This document shows positions 4,060 through 47,398 of a stretch of 54,823 nt of DNA, piece by piece. Source of the stretch: Patescibacteria group bacterium (GTDB lineage: Bacteria > Patescibacteriota > Minisyncoccia > Phycocordibacterales > UBA1006); assembly GCA_028286885.1 (NCBI GenBank), contig JAQBQS010000005.1, forward strand, positions 1 to 54,823, written 5' to 3'. Numbering within the stretch: the first letter of the stretch is position 1; every line of letters begins with the position of its first letter. A program made the position numbers and the translations under genes. The notes below the pieces were generated by a model. It was given only the letters and a program-made list of their open reading frames with translations, did not search any database and had not been told where the DNA came from.

Positions 4060-4083
4060 GAATTTTAACAAGTGTACTCCCGT

Positions 4084-4112: not shown

Positions 4113-6342
4113 ATTTCGCCACTTTCACCGCTTCTTCAAATTTAATCGAAAGCAATGTCGATGCATCGTCAGACCCGAGCGTCACGCCGTACAAGATGTT
4201 GGCTCGGCTCATCGTTTCGCGGTTATGCGTAACGACGACGAGCTGCGTCTGGCGAGCCAAGTTTTCGATCATGTCGCCGTACTTCTGGCTGTTCGCCTCA
4301 TCGAGCGCAGCATCCGTCTCGTCGAGCACGAGGAACGGCGGCGGATTTACTTGGGACAACGCGAAGAGAAGCGCGATGGATGTGAGCGATCGTTCTCCAC
4401 CAGAAAGCATCTCAAGATCCTTCACCTTCTTGCGAGGGAGCGAAACATCGATGTCGATTCCCTGCTCTTTTTCCTGCTCGTCCTCCTCGATATCCTCGGC
4501 AACTTCTTCATCCGTTTCATCAGTCGATGCTTTGCGCTTTCGCTTTTCGATATCGACAACGGCGAGTTTCGCCTCGCCTCCGCCGAACATCAGCTTGAAG
4601 AACGTTTCAAATTCCCTGTTGATCTTGACGATTCCTGTCTTAAACTCGCCTTGCAGTTTTTCCTTCAATTCCTTGATCGTAGATTCAAGCGTTGCAATCG
4701 CCGAATACAGATCGTTGATTTCACGCTCCAAGAAGGCATCGCGCGAAACGGTTTCGTCATGCTCGGCCAAAACATCGCCGGATCCTCCTCCGCCCATGTC
4801 TTCGAGCCTAATCTTCATGCGCTCGATTTCGTGATGATTCTGCCGGATTGCGGATTCATTAATCTCAACATCATGATTTACAAATCTTGATTTCAAATCA
4901 AGAATGCCGCTGCCGACAAGCGCTTCGGCTTGGACATATTCGGATTTCAAATTCTCGATTCTCTCGGCAACATGCGATTCCTCGTTTACGAGAATGGCAA
5001 TGCGCGACGCGATTTCGTTTCGCTTCGCGGACAGTTCATATTTGGTGCGTTCCGAATCTTGCGACAATTTACGAGACTCTGCTACTTGGATTTCGATCGT
5101 TTTGATCTGCTGTTCAAGCGCGCCAGTCTTATGGTCGATCTCGGCAATCTGAGTCTCGAGTTCTGACTTTGAAGATTCGAATTCAGACGTGTCTACCTGG
5201 ATCGGTTCCGCAGGGCTTCCTTTCTTGTCTGTTATGTACGCGCGCAGTTTGGCGATCGCCTGATGCAGGTCGAATCCGCCATTCTTTGCGAGAGCTTCAA
5301 ATTCATCGGCGAGATTCTCGATATCAAGAAGCGACACGGTCGAGACGCCGACCTTGCCCGGCTTGGTCGCCATTTTTGCCGCCTCGATCATTCCCTCGAC
5401 GCGTCCGATCTGCCGTCCGATATCATCGCGATTTCGCGCAAGGTTCCGAATCTCGCTTCGGACGCGCGCAATTTCCGTTTCAAGATGCGAAACAGAATCG
5501 ACGGCCGAACTTTCTGCAATGTGCGCCATGCGATCTTCCACCATCAAGAGATCGGTTTCGAGATTTTTCTTTTCTTTCTCGGACGCGAATTGCTTGCGCG
5601 CGATGGCGCTTTGTTCCTCGACCAAATATTTTTCGTATGCGGAAACAAGGGCGATTTCGATCTCGCGCGCCTTCTCGATTTTTTCAACCTGCTTCTTCAA
5701 GAACTTGATATGCGGCGCGAGTTCGCGGCGGATCGATTCGGCTTCGCGGACATGCTCGCGCGTTTTCTCAAGCTTGCGCTCTCCCTCCTTGATTCGATAG
5801 TGATAGAGTTTAAGCCCCAAAGATTCCTCGAGCATCTCGCGGCGCTCCGCAGGTTTCGAGTTAAGAAGCCGGTCGGCCTCGCCCTGCGAAATAATATGAT
5901 GCCCCGATGATCCGATGTTTACGGATGCGATCAGCTCATGAATGTCTTTAAGTCTCACATCGTTTCCATTCAGCGTATATTTGTTCGCACCGTCGGCGAA
6001 CACTTCTCGTGAAATAGTTATTTCATCAAAATCCAAAGACAAGTTTTGATCGTCCACGCTTGGCAAGGAAAAAATGCGCTTTGAATTATCAAAGGTAATG
6101 GCAACCATCGCACGTGACATTTTGCCAATTTGCTTGGATCCTTTGAAGATCAAATCTGCTCCTGTTTTGGATCGCATGGATTTCGTCGACTGCTCGCCGA
6201 GGACGAACCGGATCGCCTCCACAACGTTCGATTTTCCGGAACCGTTCGGTCCCACGATCGACGTTACCGGCGCCGAGAAGTCAAAAACCGCCCGCTTCGC
6301 GAACGACTTGAATCCGTGCATTTCGAGGCGCTTCAGGGTCAT
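4111..6342 (-). CDS. smc: SMC-family ATPase, short form (743 aa)
   Basis: Walker A GPNGSGKSN, Q-loop IISQGE, signature LSGGE, Walker B/D-loop LVLDETDAALD, H-loop VVTHN; coiled coil between the head halves. Confidence 0.9.
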   Translation of the reverse strand: MTLKRLEMHGFKSFAKRAVFDFSAPVTSIVGPNGSGKSNVVEAIRFVLGEQSTKSMRSKTGADLIFKGSKQIGKMSRAMVAITFDNSKRIFSLPSVDDQNLSLDFDEITISREVFADGANKYTLNGNDVRLKDIHELIASVNIGSSGHHIISQGEADRLLNSKPAERREMLEESLGLKLYHYRIKEGERKLEKTREHVREAESIRRELAPHIKFLKKQVEKIEKAREIEIALVSAYEKYLVEEQSAIARKQFASEKEKKNLETDLLMVEDRMAHIAESSAVDSVSHLETEIARVRSEIRNLARNRDDIGRQIGRVEGMIEAAKMATKPGKVGVSTVSLLDIENLADEFEALAKNGGFDLHQAIAKLRAYITDKKGSPAEPIQVDTSEFESSKSELETQIAEIDHKTGALEQQIKTIEIQVAESRKLSQDSERTKYELSAKRNEIASRIAILVNEESHVAERIENLKSEYVQAEALVGSGILDLKSRFVNHDVEINESAIRQNHHEIERMKIRLEDMGGGGSGDVLAEHDETVSRDAFLEREINDLYSAIATLESTIKELKEKLQGEFKTGIVKINREFETFFKLMFGGGEAKLAVVDIEKRKRKASTDETDEEVAEDIEEDEQEKEQGIDIDVSLPRKKVKDLEMLSGGERSLTSIALLFALSQVNPPPFLVLDETDAALDEANSQKYGDMIENLARQTQLVVVTHNRETMSRANILYGVTLGSDDASTLLSIKFEEAVKVAK

Positions 6343-6392
6343 ACGTTATGAAAATTATAACAAAAAAAGGATGCGGGTGCATCCTTTTGAGA

Positions 6393-6737
6393 TCACAGAA
6401 GTTCTTTAAGAAACTTGTTCAAAATGTCTATTTTTTCTTGCTCTGATTTAATCTGGTCTTCCTTTTCGGAAATAGTCTCTTTCAGGGATTTTGAGAATGC
6501 TTTCTTATTCGAATTGAAATACGCGAGATGATCATAGCTCAGAAATTTTTTCAGCTTTGATAATTCAAAATCTTCTTGTATACCTTTGGAGTTCATCGTC
6601 GTAACCATATTTTCTTTAGAAATTCCGATGATGAAGAAGTATTCCGGATTGGAGGGAGTTCCTTGTGGAGAATAGTATATGCAAGCATAGTACTGTTTCT
6701 TTTTAAAAGCTTTTACACTTGTTATTTGTTTTTTCAT
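6393..6737 (-). CDS. Hypothetical protein, C-terminal coiled coil
   Basis: 114-aa AT-rich ORF with its own promoter and terminator. Confidence 0.65.
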   Translation of the reverse strand: MKKQITSVKAFKKKQYYACIYYSPQGTPSNPEYFFIIGISKENMVTTMNSKGIQEDFELSKLKKFLSYDHLAYFNSNKKAFSKSLKETISEKEDQIKSEQEKIDILNKFLKELL

Positions 6738-10259: not shown

Positions 10260-10952
10260 TTAGCTCCACTTCTTGGCTTCGAGGGCTTTTCTCGCAGCTG
10301 CAGTTTCTGCCTCCTGCTTGGAACTTCCCTTTCCTTCTGCGACCTTGTGATCGCGGAAAAAAATGCCGACAGTGAAAACCTTGTCATGATCAGGGCCTGA
10401 TTCCGAGAGAACTTTGTAGATCGGGGTAACACCTTCGTTCTCTTGGGATTTTTCCTGCACGAACGACTTGGCATCGCGCCACAAGTTCTGCTTGATAATG
10501 TTTTCAAGTTCAGGAAACAGGTGCGCCTCAATAAACTTTTGAGCCGCATCGTATCCTTGGTCAAGATACAAAGATCCCGTAAACGCTTCAAACGTGTTTG
10601 CCAAGATGTACGCCCGCGCCTTGCCGGTATCTTTTGATTCCCCTTTTGAAAGGAGAAGATAATCCTCAAATCCCAATCGCTTTGACGCGTCTGAGATCGA
10701 GTTCGTGTTCACGAGCGACGCGCGATACGCGGTGAGTTCGCCCTCGGGCTTCTCGGGAAATTCTTTGTACAAATAGTCCGTTACGACAAGTTCGAGCACG
10801 GCATCTCCCAAGAATTCCAGCCGCTCGTTATGGGCCATCTTGATCCCCGCATTTTCGTTCAAATATGAGCGATGCAAAAACCCCTGCATGAGCAAGTCCT
10901 TATTTTTAAATTCGATATTCAATTTTTTCTCCAGTTCCGAAAAATCCTTCAT
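10260..10952 (-). CDS. rnc: Ribonuclease III
   Basis: HNERLEFLGDAVLEL signature and C-terminal dsRBD; start at MKDF, 6 nt after TATAAC. Confidence 0.97.
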   Translation of the reverse strand: MKDFSELEKKLNIEFKNKDLLMQGFLHRSYLNENAGIKMAHNERLEFLGDAVLELVVTDYLYKEFPEKPEGELTAYRASLVNTNSISDASKRLGFEDYLLLSKGESKDTGKARAYILANTFEAFTGSLYLDQGYDAAQKFIEAHLFPELENIIKQNLWRDAKSFVQEKSQENEGVTPIYKVLSESGPDHDKVFTVGIFFRDHKVAEGKGSSKQEAETAAARKALEAKKWS

Positions 10953-10992
10953 GGCAATGTTATACATTAATTTGGACCTTTTTTCAAGTTAT

Positions 10993-11023
10993 AAAAAATC
11001 CCGAATCATTTCTGATCCGGGAT
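10993..11023 (-). terminator. Terminator hairpin upstream of the rnc promoter
   Basis: ATCCCGGATCA..TGATTCGGGAT followed by TTTTTT on the minus strand. Confidence 0.7.
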
Positions 11024-11186
11024 GGTGTTTTTTTGGATGTAGCTATGCTCACTAAGACTTATCGCTGATAATCAAGTATTTGATTATTCTGGGCTTAAGA
11101 ACAAAACCGTCCGGGAGACTTATCCTGCACTTGCTGCATAAAGCAACAACTTCGGGCTCGCTATGGACAATAATTTATTTCTGTTA
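10993..11186 (-). ncRNA. Candidate structured ncRNA with two tandem copies of RAGCCC(A)GAA-stem-CAG(C)GATAAGTCTY
   Basis: Promoter TTGACT-17-TAAACT, no ATG/GTG-started ORF of useful length, repeated motif with compensating stems, ends at a terminator. Confidence 0.5.
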
Positions 11187-11188
11187 TT

Positions 11189-11217
11189 AGTTTAGCACAC
11201 TTTGTTTAAAAAGTCAA
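11189..11217 (-). promoter_or_regulatory. Sigma70-type promoter TTGACT-N17-TAAACT
   Basis: Near-consensus boxes at 17-nt spacing, just downstream of the nusB terminator (11236-11258). Confidence 0.65.
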
Positions 11218-11256
11218 ATGTTTTTATAACCATGTAAAAAATCCCTCTCGGGAATT

Positions 11257-12162
11257 TTACATCGCTACTATTTTTTCAATGGCCATCGCCATGAGCTGCG
11301 TCACGTCGTCATACATCGTGAGATCCGTTATCTCGGACATCTCGAACCATTTCGTATCCTTGAGTCCTCCTGACGTCGATTCCAAAACGAGCGGAACAAA
11401 CGGGGCGCTCGCAAGGAAGTAAATCACGTGCTTGCGAACCTTGCCGCGCGTCGGATGATTTGCAATGTATTCGTTTTCTCCCAATTTCTCGATGATCGTA
11501 ATGTCGAGTCCGATTTCCTCTTTGAGTTCGCGTATCGTTCCCTGCTCCGGAGTCTCGCCTTCTTCGATCGATCCTTTTGAAAGAGTCCAATATCCGAAGA
11601 CGTCATAAACCATCGCGAAGCGGATTGTTCCCGCCTCGTCTTTCGAGAATACAATCGCACCTCCTTTCATATCAACCGGATACTGGGACGGGTCAAGAGG
11701 CTCGTGAGGATGCTTCTTCTTGGAAACCTGGTCCTTGCCCGGCTCGCCGATTTCCTTGTAAATGGCGCCAAGGACGCCGTTTACGAACGGTCCTGATTTC
11801 TCGCCGCCGAAGGACTTGGCAAGTTCGATCGCCTCGTTGATCGCAACTTTGGGCGGAACCTGCTCGCGATCGCCGAAAAGGAGTTCGTACAATCCGAGGC
11901 GCAAAATGTTCCGGTCGACTGTCGAGATCTTCGCAATCGGCCATTCAGGCGCCGCCTTTTCGATGATCTCATCCAAGATTTTTTGCTTGCGAACGATGTT
12001 CGTAGCGGTTTCGCGAATGAATGTCGGATCATCAATTCCCGCGCCAAATTCCCCCAGACAATGGTCCAGCGCCGCGTCCACGCGCGATTCTTCGAACCCG
12101 TTAAAGTCGAGGTCGAACAGGGTCTGCATGATGATTGATCGGGCGAGATGTCGATGAGCCAT
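11257..12162 (-). CDS. nusB: NusB antitermination factor fused to a C-terminal Nudix hydrolase
   Basis: NusB motifs RHLARSIIMQTLF, DRNILRLGLYEL, VAINEAIELAKSFG, FVNGVLG; intact Nudix box GSIEEGETPEQGTIRELKEEIG. Confidence 0.92.
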   Translation of the reverse strand: MAHRHLARSIIMQTLFDLDFNGFEESRVDAALDHCLGEFGAGIDDPTFIRETATNIVRKQKILDEIIEKAAPEWPIAKISTVDRNILRLGLYELLFGDREQVPPKVAINEAIELAKSFGGEKSGPFVNGVLGAIYKEIGEPGKDQVSKKKHPHEPLDPSQYPVDMKGGAIVFSKDEAGTIRFAMVYDVFGYWTLSKGSIEEGETPEQGTIRELKEEIGLDITIIEKLGENEYIANHPTRGKVRKHVIYFLASAPFVPLVLESTSGGLKDTKWFEMSEITDLTMYDDVTQLMAMAIEKIVAM

Positions 12163-12568: not shown

Positions 12569-13240
12569 TTACTTTTTCTTCTTCTTTTTCATTTCTTCCC
12601 GGTACTCGGTCTCGGCATCAATCATTTCTATGACCTCGCGGGCATAGGCCAGATATCTGCCGTCGGCTTCGTCGGGAGTATTTTTCAAGAGAAGACCTGA
12701 ATCGTCATTGATGATTTTTTCCATCAGTATCCTCGATACTTTCAGGTGGTTGTTTGGAAGATACTGGATGATTTCCTTGAACTCAGGATTAATCGGCCTG
12801 CCTTTTTCCGAATCATTCTTATTCTTTCCTGGAAAGCTTATCATTCGAGGTATGAGGCTGACATCGATCCTGTTGCCATAAAACGTCTGGCGGTGGTCAG
12901 GATTGTCCTGGCTTCCGGGAACGTTCCACTCGCAGATATCAAAAAGTTCTTCCGTGTTGATATGGATTCCCGTTTCTTCAAGGGCTTCCCTGAGCAGGAC
13001 TTCCATTCGGCCTTCGTCATCCGGCTTGTCCTCCTGTTTCGCATCATCCCTTTTATAAGGGGTTACGATACTGAGTATTTTGCCGTCGTAAAAGATAGGA
13101 GGAGCCCAGCCGACATACTCGTCGCCGACCTTGTTGCGTCCGCCCGTAAATTTCAGATTCGAGTACCCTTTTGCATTTTTTATAGCGCATTTTTCCAACA
13201 GCTTATGCAGGGGGATTCTTGATGTTGCTGTCATTACCAT
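12569..13240 (-). CDS. Hypothetical protein with a partial Nudix-like motif
   Basis: LLREALEETG matches the second half of the Nudix box; the first half is degenerate. Confidence 0.55.
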   Translation of the reverse strand: MVMTATSRIPLHKLLEKCAIKNAKGYSNLKFTGGRNKVGDEYVGWAPPIFYDGKILSIVTPYKRDDAKQEDKPDDEGRMEVLLREALEETGIHINTEELFDICEWNVPGSQDNPDHRQTFYGNRIDVSLIPRMISFPGKNKNDSEKGRPINPEFKEIIQYLPNNHLKVSRILMEKIINDDSGLLLKNTPDEADGRYLAYAREVIEMIDAETEYREEMKKKKKK

Positions 13241-47253: not shown

Positions 47254-47311
47254 AAGTATGGTCTATTATATCGTATTTTGATACAAGTGTGCTATATTCT
47301 TCGGACAAAAC

Positions 47312-47398
47312 GGAGGCGTCGCATAGCGGTCTAGTGCACCACCTTGGAAAGGTGGCAAGGTGTCAAAACCTTCGAGAGTTCAAATCTCTCCGCCTCCG
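47312..47398 (+). tRNA. tRNA-Ser(GGA); CCA not encoded
   Basis: Acceptor GGAGGCG/CGCCTCC, anticodon stem CCACC-TTGGAAA-GGTGG, long variable arm, GAGAG-TTCAAAT-CTCTC, discriminator G; followed by CCC. Confidence 0.95.

Follow-up and report, generated by a model that had tools for sequence, protein, structure and literature searches.

The predicted transcription unit between nusB and rnc

The window analysed here, a 54,823-nt stretch of contig JAQBQS010000005.1 from an uncultivated Patescibacteria bacterium, carries on its minus strand a 304-nt spacer between a nusB–NUDIX fusion gene and rnc, which encodes RNase III. Within this spacer lie a predicted promoter (P1), a predicted non-coding transcript containing two look-alike hairpin units (A and B) and an intrinsic terminator (T2), arranged as follows in the direction of transcription.

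11257..12162, minus: nusB–NUDIX fusion gene, the upstream gene, 301 aa (Pfam NusB 6.4e-33, NUDIX 1e-13)
11217..11189, minus: predicted promoter P1, TTGACT-17-TAAACT with a TG extended -10 (consensus scan, 9 of 12 matches)
10992..11182, minus: predicted ~190-nt non-coding transcript (from promoter and terminator positions and fold)
11109..11168, minus: unit A, with basal stem GUCC/GGAC, closing stem GAG(C)/(G)CUC, conserved internal loop or bulge and 7-bp apical stem
11158..11154 and 11127..11116, minus: boxes of unit A, AGCCC and CAGGATAAGTCT, respectively
11046..11103, minus: unit B, with 10-bp lower stem UGUUCUUAAG/CUUAG(U)GAGCA, the same conserved loop as unit A and 8-bp apical stem
11095..11091 and 11067..11055, minus: boxes of unit B, AGCCC and CAGCGATAAGTCT, respectively
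10992..11023, minus: predicted intrinsic terminator T2, with an 11-bp stem (AUCCCGGAUCA/UGAUUCGGGAU), GAAA loop, U6 tail and an A-tract ahead (terminator scan)
10260..10952, minus: rnc, RNase III, 230 aa (Pfam Ribonucleas_3_3, Ribonuclease_3, dsrm)

P1 is a predicted promoter of the sigma-70 type recognised as a consensus match, and the ends of the transcript were placed ~7 nt past its -10 hexamer and at the U-run of the terminator. In the centroid fold, no helix other than the T2 stem (11023..10998, followed by TTTTTT) is strongly predicted. The original prediction, made from the sequence alone, had described this promoter as well as a terminator at 10993-11023, and both are recovered by our scans, the former at 11217..11189 and the latter as an 11-bp stem with six T residues.

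The minus strand contains no ATG-, GTG- or TTG-initiated open reading frame (ORF) of at least 20 aa across units A and B. A 40-codon ATT-start frame is present, and the two copies of the 9-mer GATAAGTCT, one in each unit, are read in different frames; the ORF scan agrees with the earlier claim that, this frame apart, no ATG- or GTG-started ORF of useful length exists. Neither the ATT frame nor the plus-strand ORFs have any Pfam match. As judged from its sequence, the RNA is non-coding. The generic attributes of a stand-alone small RNA (sRNA) gene, namely its own promoter, an intrinsic terminator, no ORF and an intergenic position, are all found here at the level of sequence prediction.

Two hairpin units built on one framework

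Units A and B share a common framework, AGCCC…CAG(N)GATAAGTCT, wrapped around unrelated stems. The box pattern AGCCC-N-GATAAGTCT occurs at 11158..11116 and 11095..11055 (2 matches versus 0.01 expected), and the exact 9-mer GATAAGTCT has no further occurrence in the window, which also holds no targets for it above chance. The AGCCC boxes lie 63 nt apart and the GATAAGTCT boxes 61 nt apart. All 17 box nucleotides are identical between the units, and the stems have diverged wholly and still pair: the apical stem of unit A is UUGUUGC/GCAGCAA (7 bp, one G-U), that of unit B is the unrelated AUAAUCAA/UUGAUUAU (8 bp), the closing pairs are GAG/CUC and AAG/CUU, and the basal stems are GUCC/GGAC and UGUUC/GAGCA. 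The originally predicted two-unit layout, with its 61-63 nt spacing, its differing but paired apical stems and its basal stems, is thus present in full.

We used chance occurrences of the boxes as a control for the stems. In IMG/VR, 39 distinct sequences fit the box pattern by chance, and in none of them do the boxes enclose an unbroken stem of 7 bp or longer; the hairpins in both units are therefore not explained by the boxes alone. The remainder of the units is too diverged for Tandem Repeats Finder, which detects no tandem repeat in the element, or for MAFFT, which mis-registers units A and B. This divergence beside 17 identical box nucleotides suggests that selection acts on the loop.

We read the computed folds as compatible with a single bulged helix of conserved nucleotides, in which 5'-AGCCC would pair with 3'-G(N)G-AUAA-G-U-CU through the succession A-U, G-C, bulged U, C-G, 4-nt bulge AUAA, C-G and C-G; the extra C of unit B becomes a bulge in this drawing. 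Each ~60-nt unit folds as an irregular hairpin that spans about two turns of a helix. The G-U pairs of the stems, as well as the direction in which the promoter and terminator point, speak for transcription of the minus strand.

The structural case consists of identical boxes set against diverged, pairing stems in two sequences from one genome. The covariation reported earlier stands insofar as the closing pairs compensate and the apical stems differ; in extent, it amounts to a single compensatory change in the closing pair and to apical stems without any resemblance in sequence, all in these same two sequences. A possible vestige of the start of a third unit was also noted.

11042..11055, minus: UUAGUGAGCAUAGC, resembling UUAUUGUCCAUAGC (11173..11160), which precedes unit A

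The resemblance (79% identity over 14 nt, at 118-nt spacing) is weak evidence for such a vestige.

By these sequence-based searches, the element matches no known RNA family, as the original prediction had supposed. Rfam 15 at the gathering threshold gives no match to the element, the sole match in the window being a tRNA at 47312, and a search of 10900..11320 at E<=10 returns noise only (12.6-17.5 bits versus thresholds of 39-100). The tRNA/tmRNA scan finds only a tRNA-Ser at 47311, and the literature on non-coding RNAs of the Candidate Phyla Radiation (CPR) yielded nothing relevant. By inspection, the conserved loop is unlikely to be a K-turn, loop E/sarcin-ricin motif, S8 site or 11-nt receptor, or a group II domain 5, hammerhead core, retron msr, boxA or DnaA-box, the defining nucleotides being out of line in each case. 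The best look-alike in IMG/VR (L080) was set aside as it lies inside a 625-aa ORF.

The nusB–rnc spacer in related genomes

Orthologous spacers were obtained via rnc and nusB homologues. The relatives examined share rnc identities of ~90-91% (L001, L002, L064-L066), 90% (L063), 87% (L062), 84% (L131, L132), 82% (L003, L004, L133) and 80% (L005, L006), and the gene map of a contig with a 93% identical NusB was examined as well. The gene order rnhB, rpmF, nusB–NUDIX, rnc is kept in the relatives. Their spacers are another matter: in the nine closest relatives with a readable or measurable spacer (rnc 82-91%, nusB up to 93% identical), these measure 43-137 nt, differ in sequence in every lineage and lack the boxes, and the element is missing from 9/9. 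Conservation in the nusB–rnc spacers of relatives is therefore not observed, an outcome that the original prediction had itself listed among those that would refute it. Another 48 rnc loci, more distant and drawn from JGI metagenomes, likewise lack the motif, as searched by regular expression, a structure-aware descriptor allowing 2 mismatches, nhmmer and blastn-short; these loci form part of a set of related loci totalling ~430 kb.

Aligned to its relatives, the window shows ~230-245 extra bases. From its sequence, the block 11230..10988 is a 243-bp lineage-specific insertion in a hypervariable spacer, delimited by the following features.

11236..11255, minus: weak terminator-like hairpin AUUCCC GAGA GGGAU with a T-run, just past the nusB stop codon (read from the sequence)
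11221..11230, minus: left arm, GTTATAAAAA, of a perfect 10-bp inverted repeat (repeat search)
10988..10997, minus: right arm, TTTTTATAAC, of the same repeat, overlapping the terminator tail (repeat search)

The inverted repeat has only two copies in the window (0.12 expected) and bounds exactly 243 bp. No target-site duplication is found, as the flanks ACATG and TTGAA differ, and no further copies of the block occur in the window or the ~430 kb of related loci. Of the hallmarks of a miniature inverted-repeat transposable element (MITE), the block therefore shows terminal inverted repeats, and neither a target-site duplication nor multiple copies in the window and related loci. The sequence GGGATTTTTTA is present on both flanks of the block. 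The hairpin at 11236..11255, whose stem is too short for the terminator scan, is homologous to the nusB terminator of L062.

Two side observations concern this spacer and its flanks. The sequence GGGATTTTTT(A/T) is over-represented throughout the window (15 matches versus 2.2 expected, for example at 4083, 10992, 11235, 22356 and 32216) and appears to be the standard 3' arm and tail of the intrinsic terminators of this genome. In the 80% relatives, a 239-aa ORF devoid of Pfam domains is inserted between nusB and rnc (L005/L006:1669-2388), with its own promoter-like sequence and terminator-like hairpin, a further sign of an insertion hot spot.

L062 has the spacer most like that of the window and reads nusB stop, terminator, TTGAAA-17-TAAACT, 6 nt, ATG (L062:2960-3003). 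Past the sRNA terminator, the window reads CTTGAAAAAAGG…TATAAC, 6 nt, ATG(10952), which we propose as a second promoter.

10959..10987, minus: candidate promoter P2 for rnc, TTGAAA-17-TATAAC, 6 nt, ATG (comparison with L062)

Because its -35 context and the 6-nt geometry from the -10 hexamer to the ATG match those of L062, it is very probable that rnc has retained a promoter of its own, P2, and that the RNA forms a separate unit. The promoter scan demands a T at the last -10 position and so does not list P2, which ends in C. The separate rnc promoter claimed earlier is supported by its match to the L062 geometry, with the qualifications that its -10 ends in C and that the L062 comparison is its sole support. 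Since only 6 nt separate the -10 hexamer from the ATG, the rnc mRNA appears from the sequence to be leaderless both in the window and in L062. Taken together, P1 and P2 look like a duplicated promoter, of which either copy may be the ancestral one.

Folding of the relatives' spacers revealed a different feature at this position. Six of the eight folded spacers give unusually stable double-stranded RNA (dsRNA), most of them without a U-run.

L001:2383-2437: spacer, z -5.3
L132:6396-6510: spacer, z -7.0, 22 perfect bp
L131:9864-10000: spacer, z -5.0
L133:1-123: spacer, z -7.7, 23 perfect bp
L006:2389-2500: spacer, z -5.1, possibly a terminator
L003:2368-2500: spacer, z -2.8

By analogy, these hairpins look like RNase III autoregulatory or processing sites whose shape is conserved and whose sequence is not. 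The window and L062 have a terminator and a leaderless rnc promoter at the spacer position of these hairpins. Units A and B have ~20-23 stacked positions and large loops, whereas the relatives' hairpins are clear-cut dsRNA. The hypervariable yet hairpin-forming nusB–rnc spacer of this clade may be a more useful lead than the orphan RNA itself.

Interpretation of the element

We tentatively interpret the element as an orphan stand-alone sRNA gene with two paralogous hairpins of the protein-binding type, a reading to which we assign a probability of about 0.45. The RNA would be made as a separate transcript and act in trans, and its two identical bulged-helix modules would together offer bivalent docking to an RNA-binding protein, for which a homodimer is the simplest choice. 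In our view the likeliest partner is RNase III, whose gene follows directly; the RNA could be a substrate that it processes or a decoy for it. RNase III is put forward as candidate partner because most of the folded close relatives carry a stable dsRNA hairpin at this position; this link is the weakest step of the proposal and we regard it as doubtful. Carried further, the AGCCC / CAG(N)GAUAAGUCU bulged helix might be the recognition module of an undescribed RNA class with further members in other genomes, either one that tunes RNase III in trans, as a bivalent substrate or decoy, in Patescibacteria that no longer have the cis dsRNA hairpin ahead of rnc, or a sensor of another dimeric protein or a ligand. 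We consider this extension a long shot, and no new RNA class can be called at present because the element is a single-genome orphan on a recent insertion.

Several findings weigh against the stand-alone sRNA interpretation. The fold z-scores of unit A (-1.65) and unit B (-1.15) are barely beyond those of shuffled sequences, and the transcript without its terminator gives weak thermodynamic support (z -0.79); these folds are far weaker than the dsRNA of the relatives, which argues against classic RNase III substrates. A separate transcript from P1 to T2 is a prediction in which the promoter is a consensus match. The -10 of P2 departs from the conserved final T and MAFFT aligns the L062 promoter with P1, the two having GCTAAACT in common, so that rnc may in fact be transcribed from P1, with the RNA as its leader. 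The element is a single instance in one genome, and its structure and function therefore gain no phylogenetic covariation support. In the ~430 kb of related loci, a descriptor allowing 2 box mismatches retrieves only the two window units (shuffles give 0-4 matches), and nhmmer and blastn find no homologue. The exact tandem pattern has 7 matches among GTDB species genomes, all of them unrelated tandem repeats or CRISPR arrays, and 0 matches in IMG/VR, where the exact single-unit pattern matches 64 stretches that are coding or unstructured and reflect chance only. Finally, blastn against phage and plasmid records returns short AT-rich noise only.

The same data bear on two other accounts of the insertion, each of which we deem unlikely. 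The block could be a functionless relic, that is, unselected foreign or rearranged DNA left by a decayed MITE-like element or by recombination between terminator tails. Its occurrence in a single genome, the perfect 10-bp inverted repeat bounding exactly 243 bp, the weak fold z-scores and the nature of the spacer as an indel hot spot, with different content in every relative and an extra 239-aa ORF in L005/L006, all fit this account, and the terminator tail GGGATTTTTTA on both sides (15 matches versus 2.2 expected) would favour illegitimate recombination. However, there is neither a target-site duplication nor a second copy in the window or the related loci, the promoter and terminator are intact and in the correct order, and neutral decay hardly explains 17/17 identical box nucleotides beside diverged, perfectly pairing stems of 7 and 8 bp. 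Somewhat less credible still is a cis-acting leader or attenuator of rnc, in which a transcript from P1, as the ancestral rnc promoter, would run through the units and the terminator would set the flow into rnc. Control could then come from a ligand (a tandem riboswitch), a protein, RNase III cleavage (autoregulation as at rncO) or put-like processive antitermination. The succession of promoter, structured RNA, intrinsic terminator, ~40 nt and rnc ATG is a classic attenuator layout; MAFFT places the L062 rnc promoter, including GCTAAACT, on P1; the P2 -10 TATAAC goes unlisted by a scan requiring the final T; an AAAGG Shine-Dalgarno-like sequence lies 9 nt ahead of the alternative ATG 10967; and dsRNA hairpins occur in the same spacer of relatives. 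On the other hand, the element is missing from all close relatives checked and has no Rfam aptamer match, and P2 repeats the leaderless geometry of L062 exactly (6 nt from the -10 hexamer to the ATG). The MKDF start favours ATG 10952, which lacks a Shine-Dalgarno sequence as expected of a leaderless mRNA, and for a gene of RNA processing such as rnc no metabolite comes readily to mind as the ligand. No antiterminator pairing was found: the units fold alike with or without the 3' arm of the terminator, and the 5' arm gains only a 4-bp alternative partner once the 3' arm is removed. The tandem riboswitch or attenuator for rnc favoured among the earlier proposals is thus not borne out, given the absence of the element from the nine closest relatives with a readable or measurable spacer, the candidate promoter P2 and the lack of an antiterminator.

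Two further explanations fare worse. The two AGACTTATC/GATAAGTCT boxes or palindromes could be DNA signals that bind a regulator of rnc or nusB, as two identical 9-mers stand 61 bp apart (~six helical turns) in a promoter-containing spacer. We hold this to be very improbable: the boxes are non-palindromic and the two palindromes unlike each other, the closing pairs and basal stems are G-U-containing helices that make sense only as minus-strand RNA, and, relative to the promoters, the boxes are placed past P1 and ~90-170 bp ahead of P2. The chance that the element encodes a small protein, in the 40-codon ATT-start minus frame or in a 36-aa TTG ORF on the plus strand, is close to negligible. These open frames exist and the ATT frame has one CxxC motif, but the minus frame has neither a canonical start codon nor a Shine-Dalgarno sequence, the repeated boxes do not share a reading frame, Pfam matches are lacking, and the plus-strand ORF is devoid of a promoter and antisense to the promoter–terminator pair.

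The architecture of the proposed sRNA invites comparison with several known systems. The E. coli rncO region reportedly comprises RNase III autoregulatory stem-loops in the rnc-era leader. In leaders of this type, a dsRNA-like hairpin of ~20 bp or more belongs to the 5' UTR of rnc, and its cleavage by RNase III alters the stability of the mRNA. In both cases rnc is immediately preceded by imperfect hairpins of about two turns, and the relatives of this genome have very stable dsRNA hairpins at the same position; unlike rncO, a strong terminator and a separate candidate rnc promoter stand between the hairpins and rnc, and the units have large conserved internal loops and weak fold z-scores. Some transcripts may read through the terminator into rnc. 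The RNase III processing signals of phage T7, such as R1.1, consist of a lower stem, an asymmetric internal loop with conserved sequence and an upper stem. Units A and B resemble them in this architecture, and they too exist in several copies with a common loop and differing stems, whereas their loops are not known to be similar in sequence to those of the units and they belong to a polycistronic phage transcript rather than to a single chromosomal locus. In type III toxin–antitoxin systems (ToxI/ToxN), a promoter, direct RNA repeats, a terminator and an endoribonuclease gene follow one another, and the same order is found here. The units, however, are not the near-identical repeats of such an array (Tandem Repeats Finder detects none), and the downstream gene is, by Pfam, a housekeeping RNase III with its own candidate promoter instead of a ToxN/AbiQ-type toxin.

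Tandem-aptamer riboswitches (glycine, RF00504; the NAD+-I nadA motif) likewise place two similar domains serially between a promoter and an intrinsic terminator. The element differs from them in having no Rfam match, no aptamer conservation across genomes (close relatives and the 48 distant rnc loci), no overlap or competition with an expression platform and a non-metabolic downstream gene. With CsrB/RsmZ-type sponges it shares the form of a stand-alone sRNA with predicted promoter and terminator and one short motif repeated on different hairpins, though the motif sits in an internal loop or bulge rather than an apical loop and has two copies only. The ANGGA motif of these sponges is not reproduced, since unit A has CAGGA in the internal loop and unit B reads CAGCGA, and we know of no link to CsrA. 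The earlier suggestion of a stand-alone sRNA or protein-binding RNA remains viable, and the stand-alone sRNA is the best fit to the sequence. The put antiterminator RNA of phage HK022 (~70 nt in total) has two dissimilar stems, placed shortly after a promoter and ahead of a terminator (PMC9378689). Its two stem-loops between promoter and terminator resemble the element in architecture only (PMC9378689); here there are two 60-nt look-alike units, and the put family is that of lambdoid phages of enterobacteria.

If the RNA is expressed and bound by RNase III or another protein, it would be among very few candidate regulatory sRNAs in CPR/Patescibacteria, in whose reduced genomes post-transcriptional regulation is, to our knowledge, essentially unexplored. 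It would then be an example, too, of RNase III control passing from a hairpin in cis to an independent RNA. As a single-genome orphan it defines no family, and its value is that of a pointer for metatranscriptome checks.

The flanking genes place the window in a CPR/Patescibacteria, 'Pacebacteria'-like genome, because the few named protein matches of NusB and rnc are Candidatus Pacebacteria or unclassified metagenome-assembled genomes (MAGs). Among the best 120 homologues listed, the fusion of NusB to a C-terminal NUDIX hydrolase domain recurs, with relatives at 62-93% identity and of nearly equal length (288-311 aa); it is an unusual pairing of an antitermination factor with a possible RNA or nucleotide pyrophosphohydrolase. 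For rnc, most of the 120 homologues listed, including nearly all the closest, have 230 aa, and those fetched start with MKDF, MKEF, MKNF or MTKDF, some behind a short unrelated N-terminal extension, so the true start is probably ATG 10952 (MKDF...) rather than ATG 10967. The ORF call from ATG 10967 is probably 5 codons too long.

Further afield on the minus strand, a 223-aa ORF without Pfam match (12569-13240) ends in a lysine run (…EEMKKKKKK); its position beside rnhB is kept in L001 and gone from L062. In L132, a PemK/MazF-type toxin gene lies between dnaE and rnhB (L132:3989-4375) in an otherwise conserved neighbourhood. Two of the GTDB pattern matches, L011:5026-5100 (a Bacilli MAG) and L013:4833-5632 (a Clostridia MAG), prove to be CRISPR arrays; their repeat, GTTTGAGAG…GATAAGTCTNTAAC, contains the 9-mer by chance, and they are unrelated to the element. 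An identical 51-nt sequence, GCCCGGAGAAACAACGGGCACTCTTATCCTGTGCAGTCCCGGAGACAAGTC, occurs in the distant relative L018 at 4165-4215 and 6368-6418 (2.2 kb apart) and again at L019:11-61, and probably belongs to a duplicated gene or a repeat.

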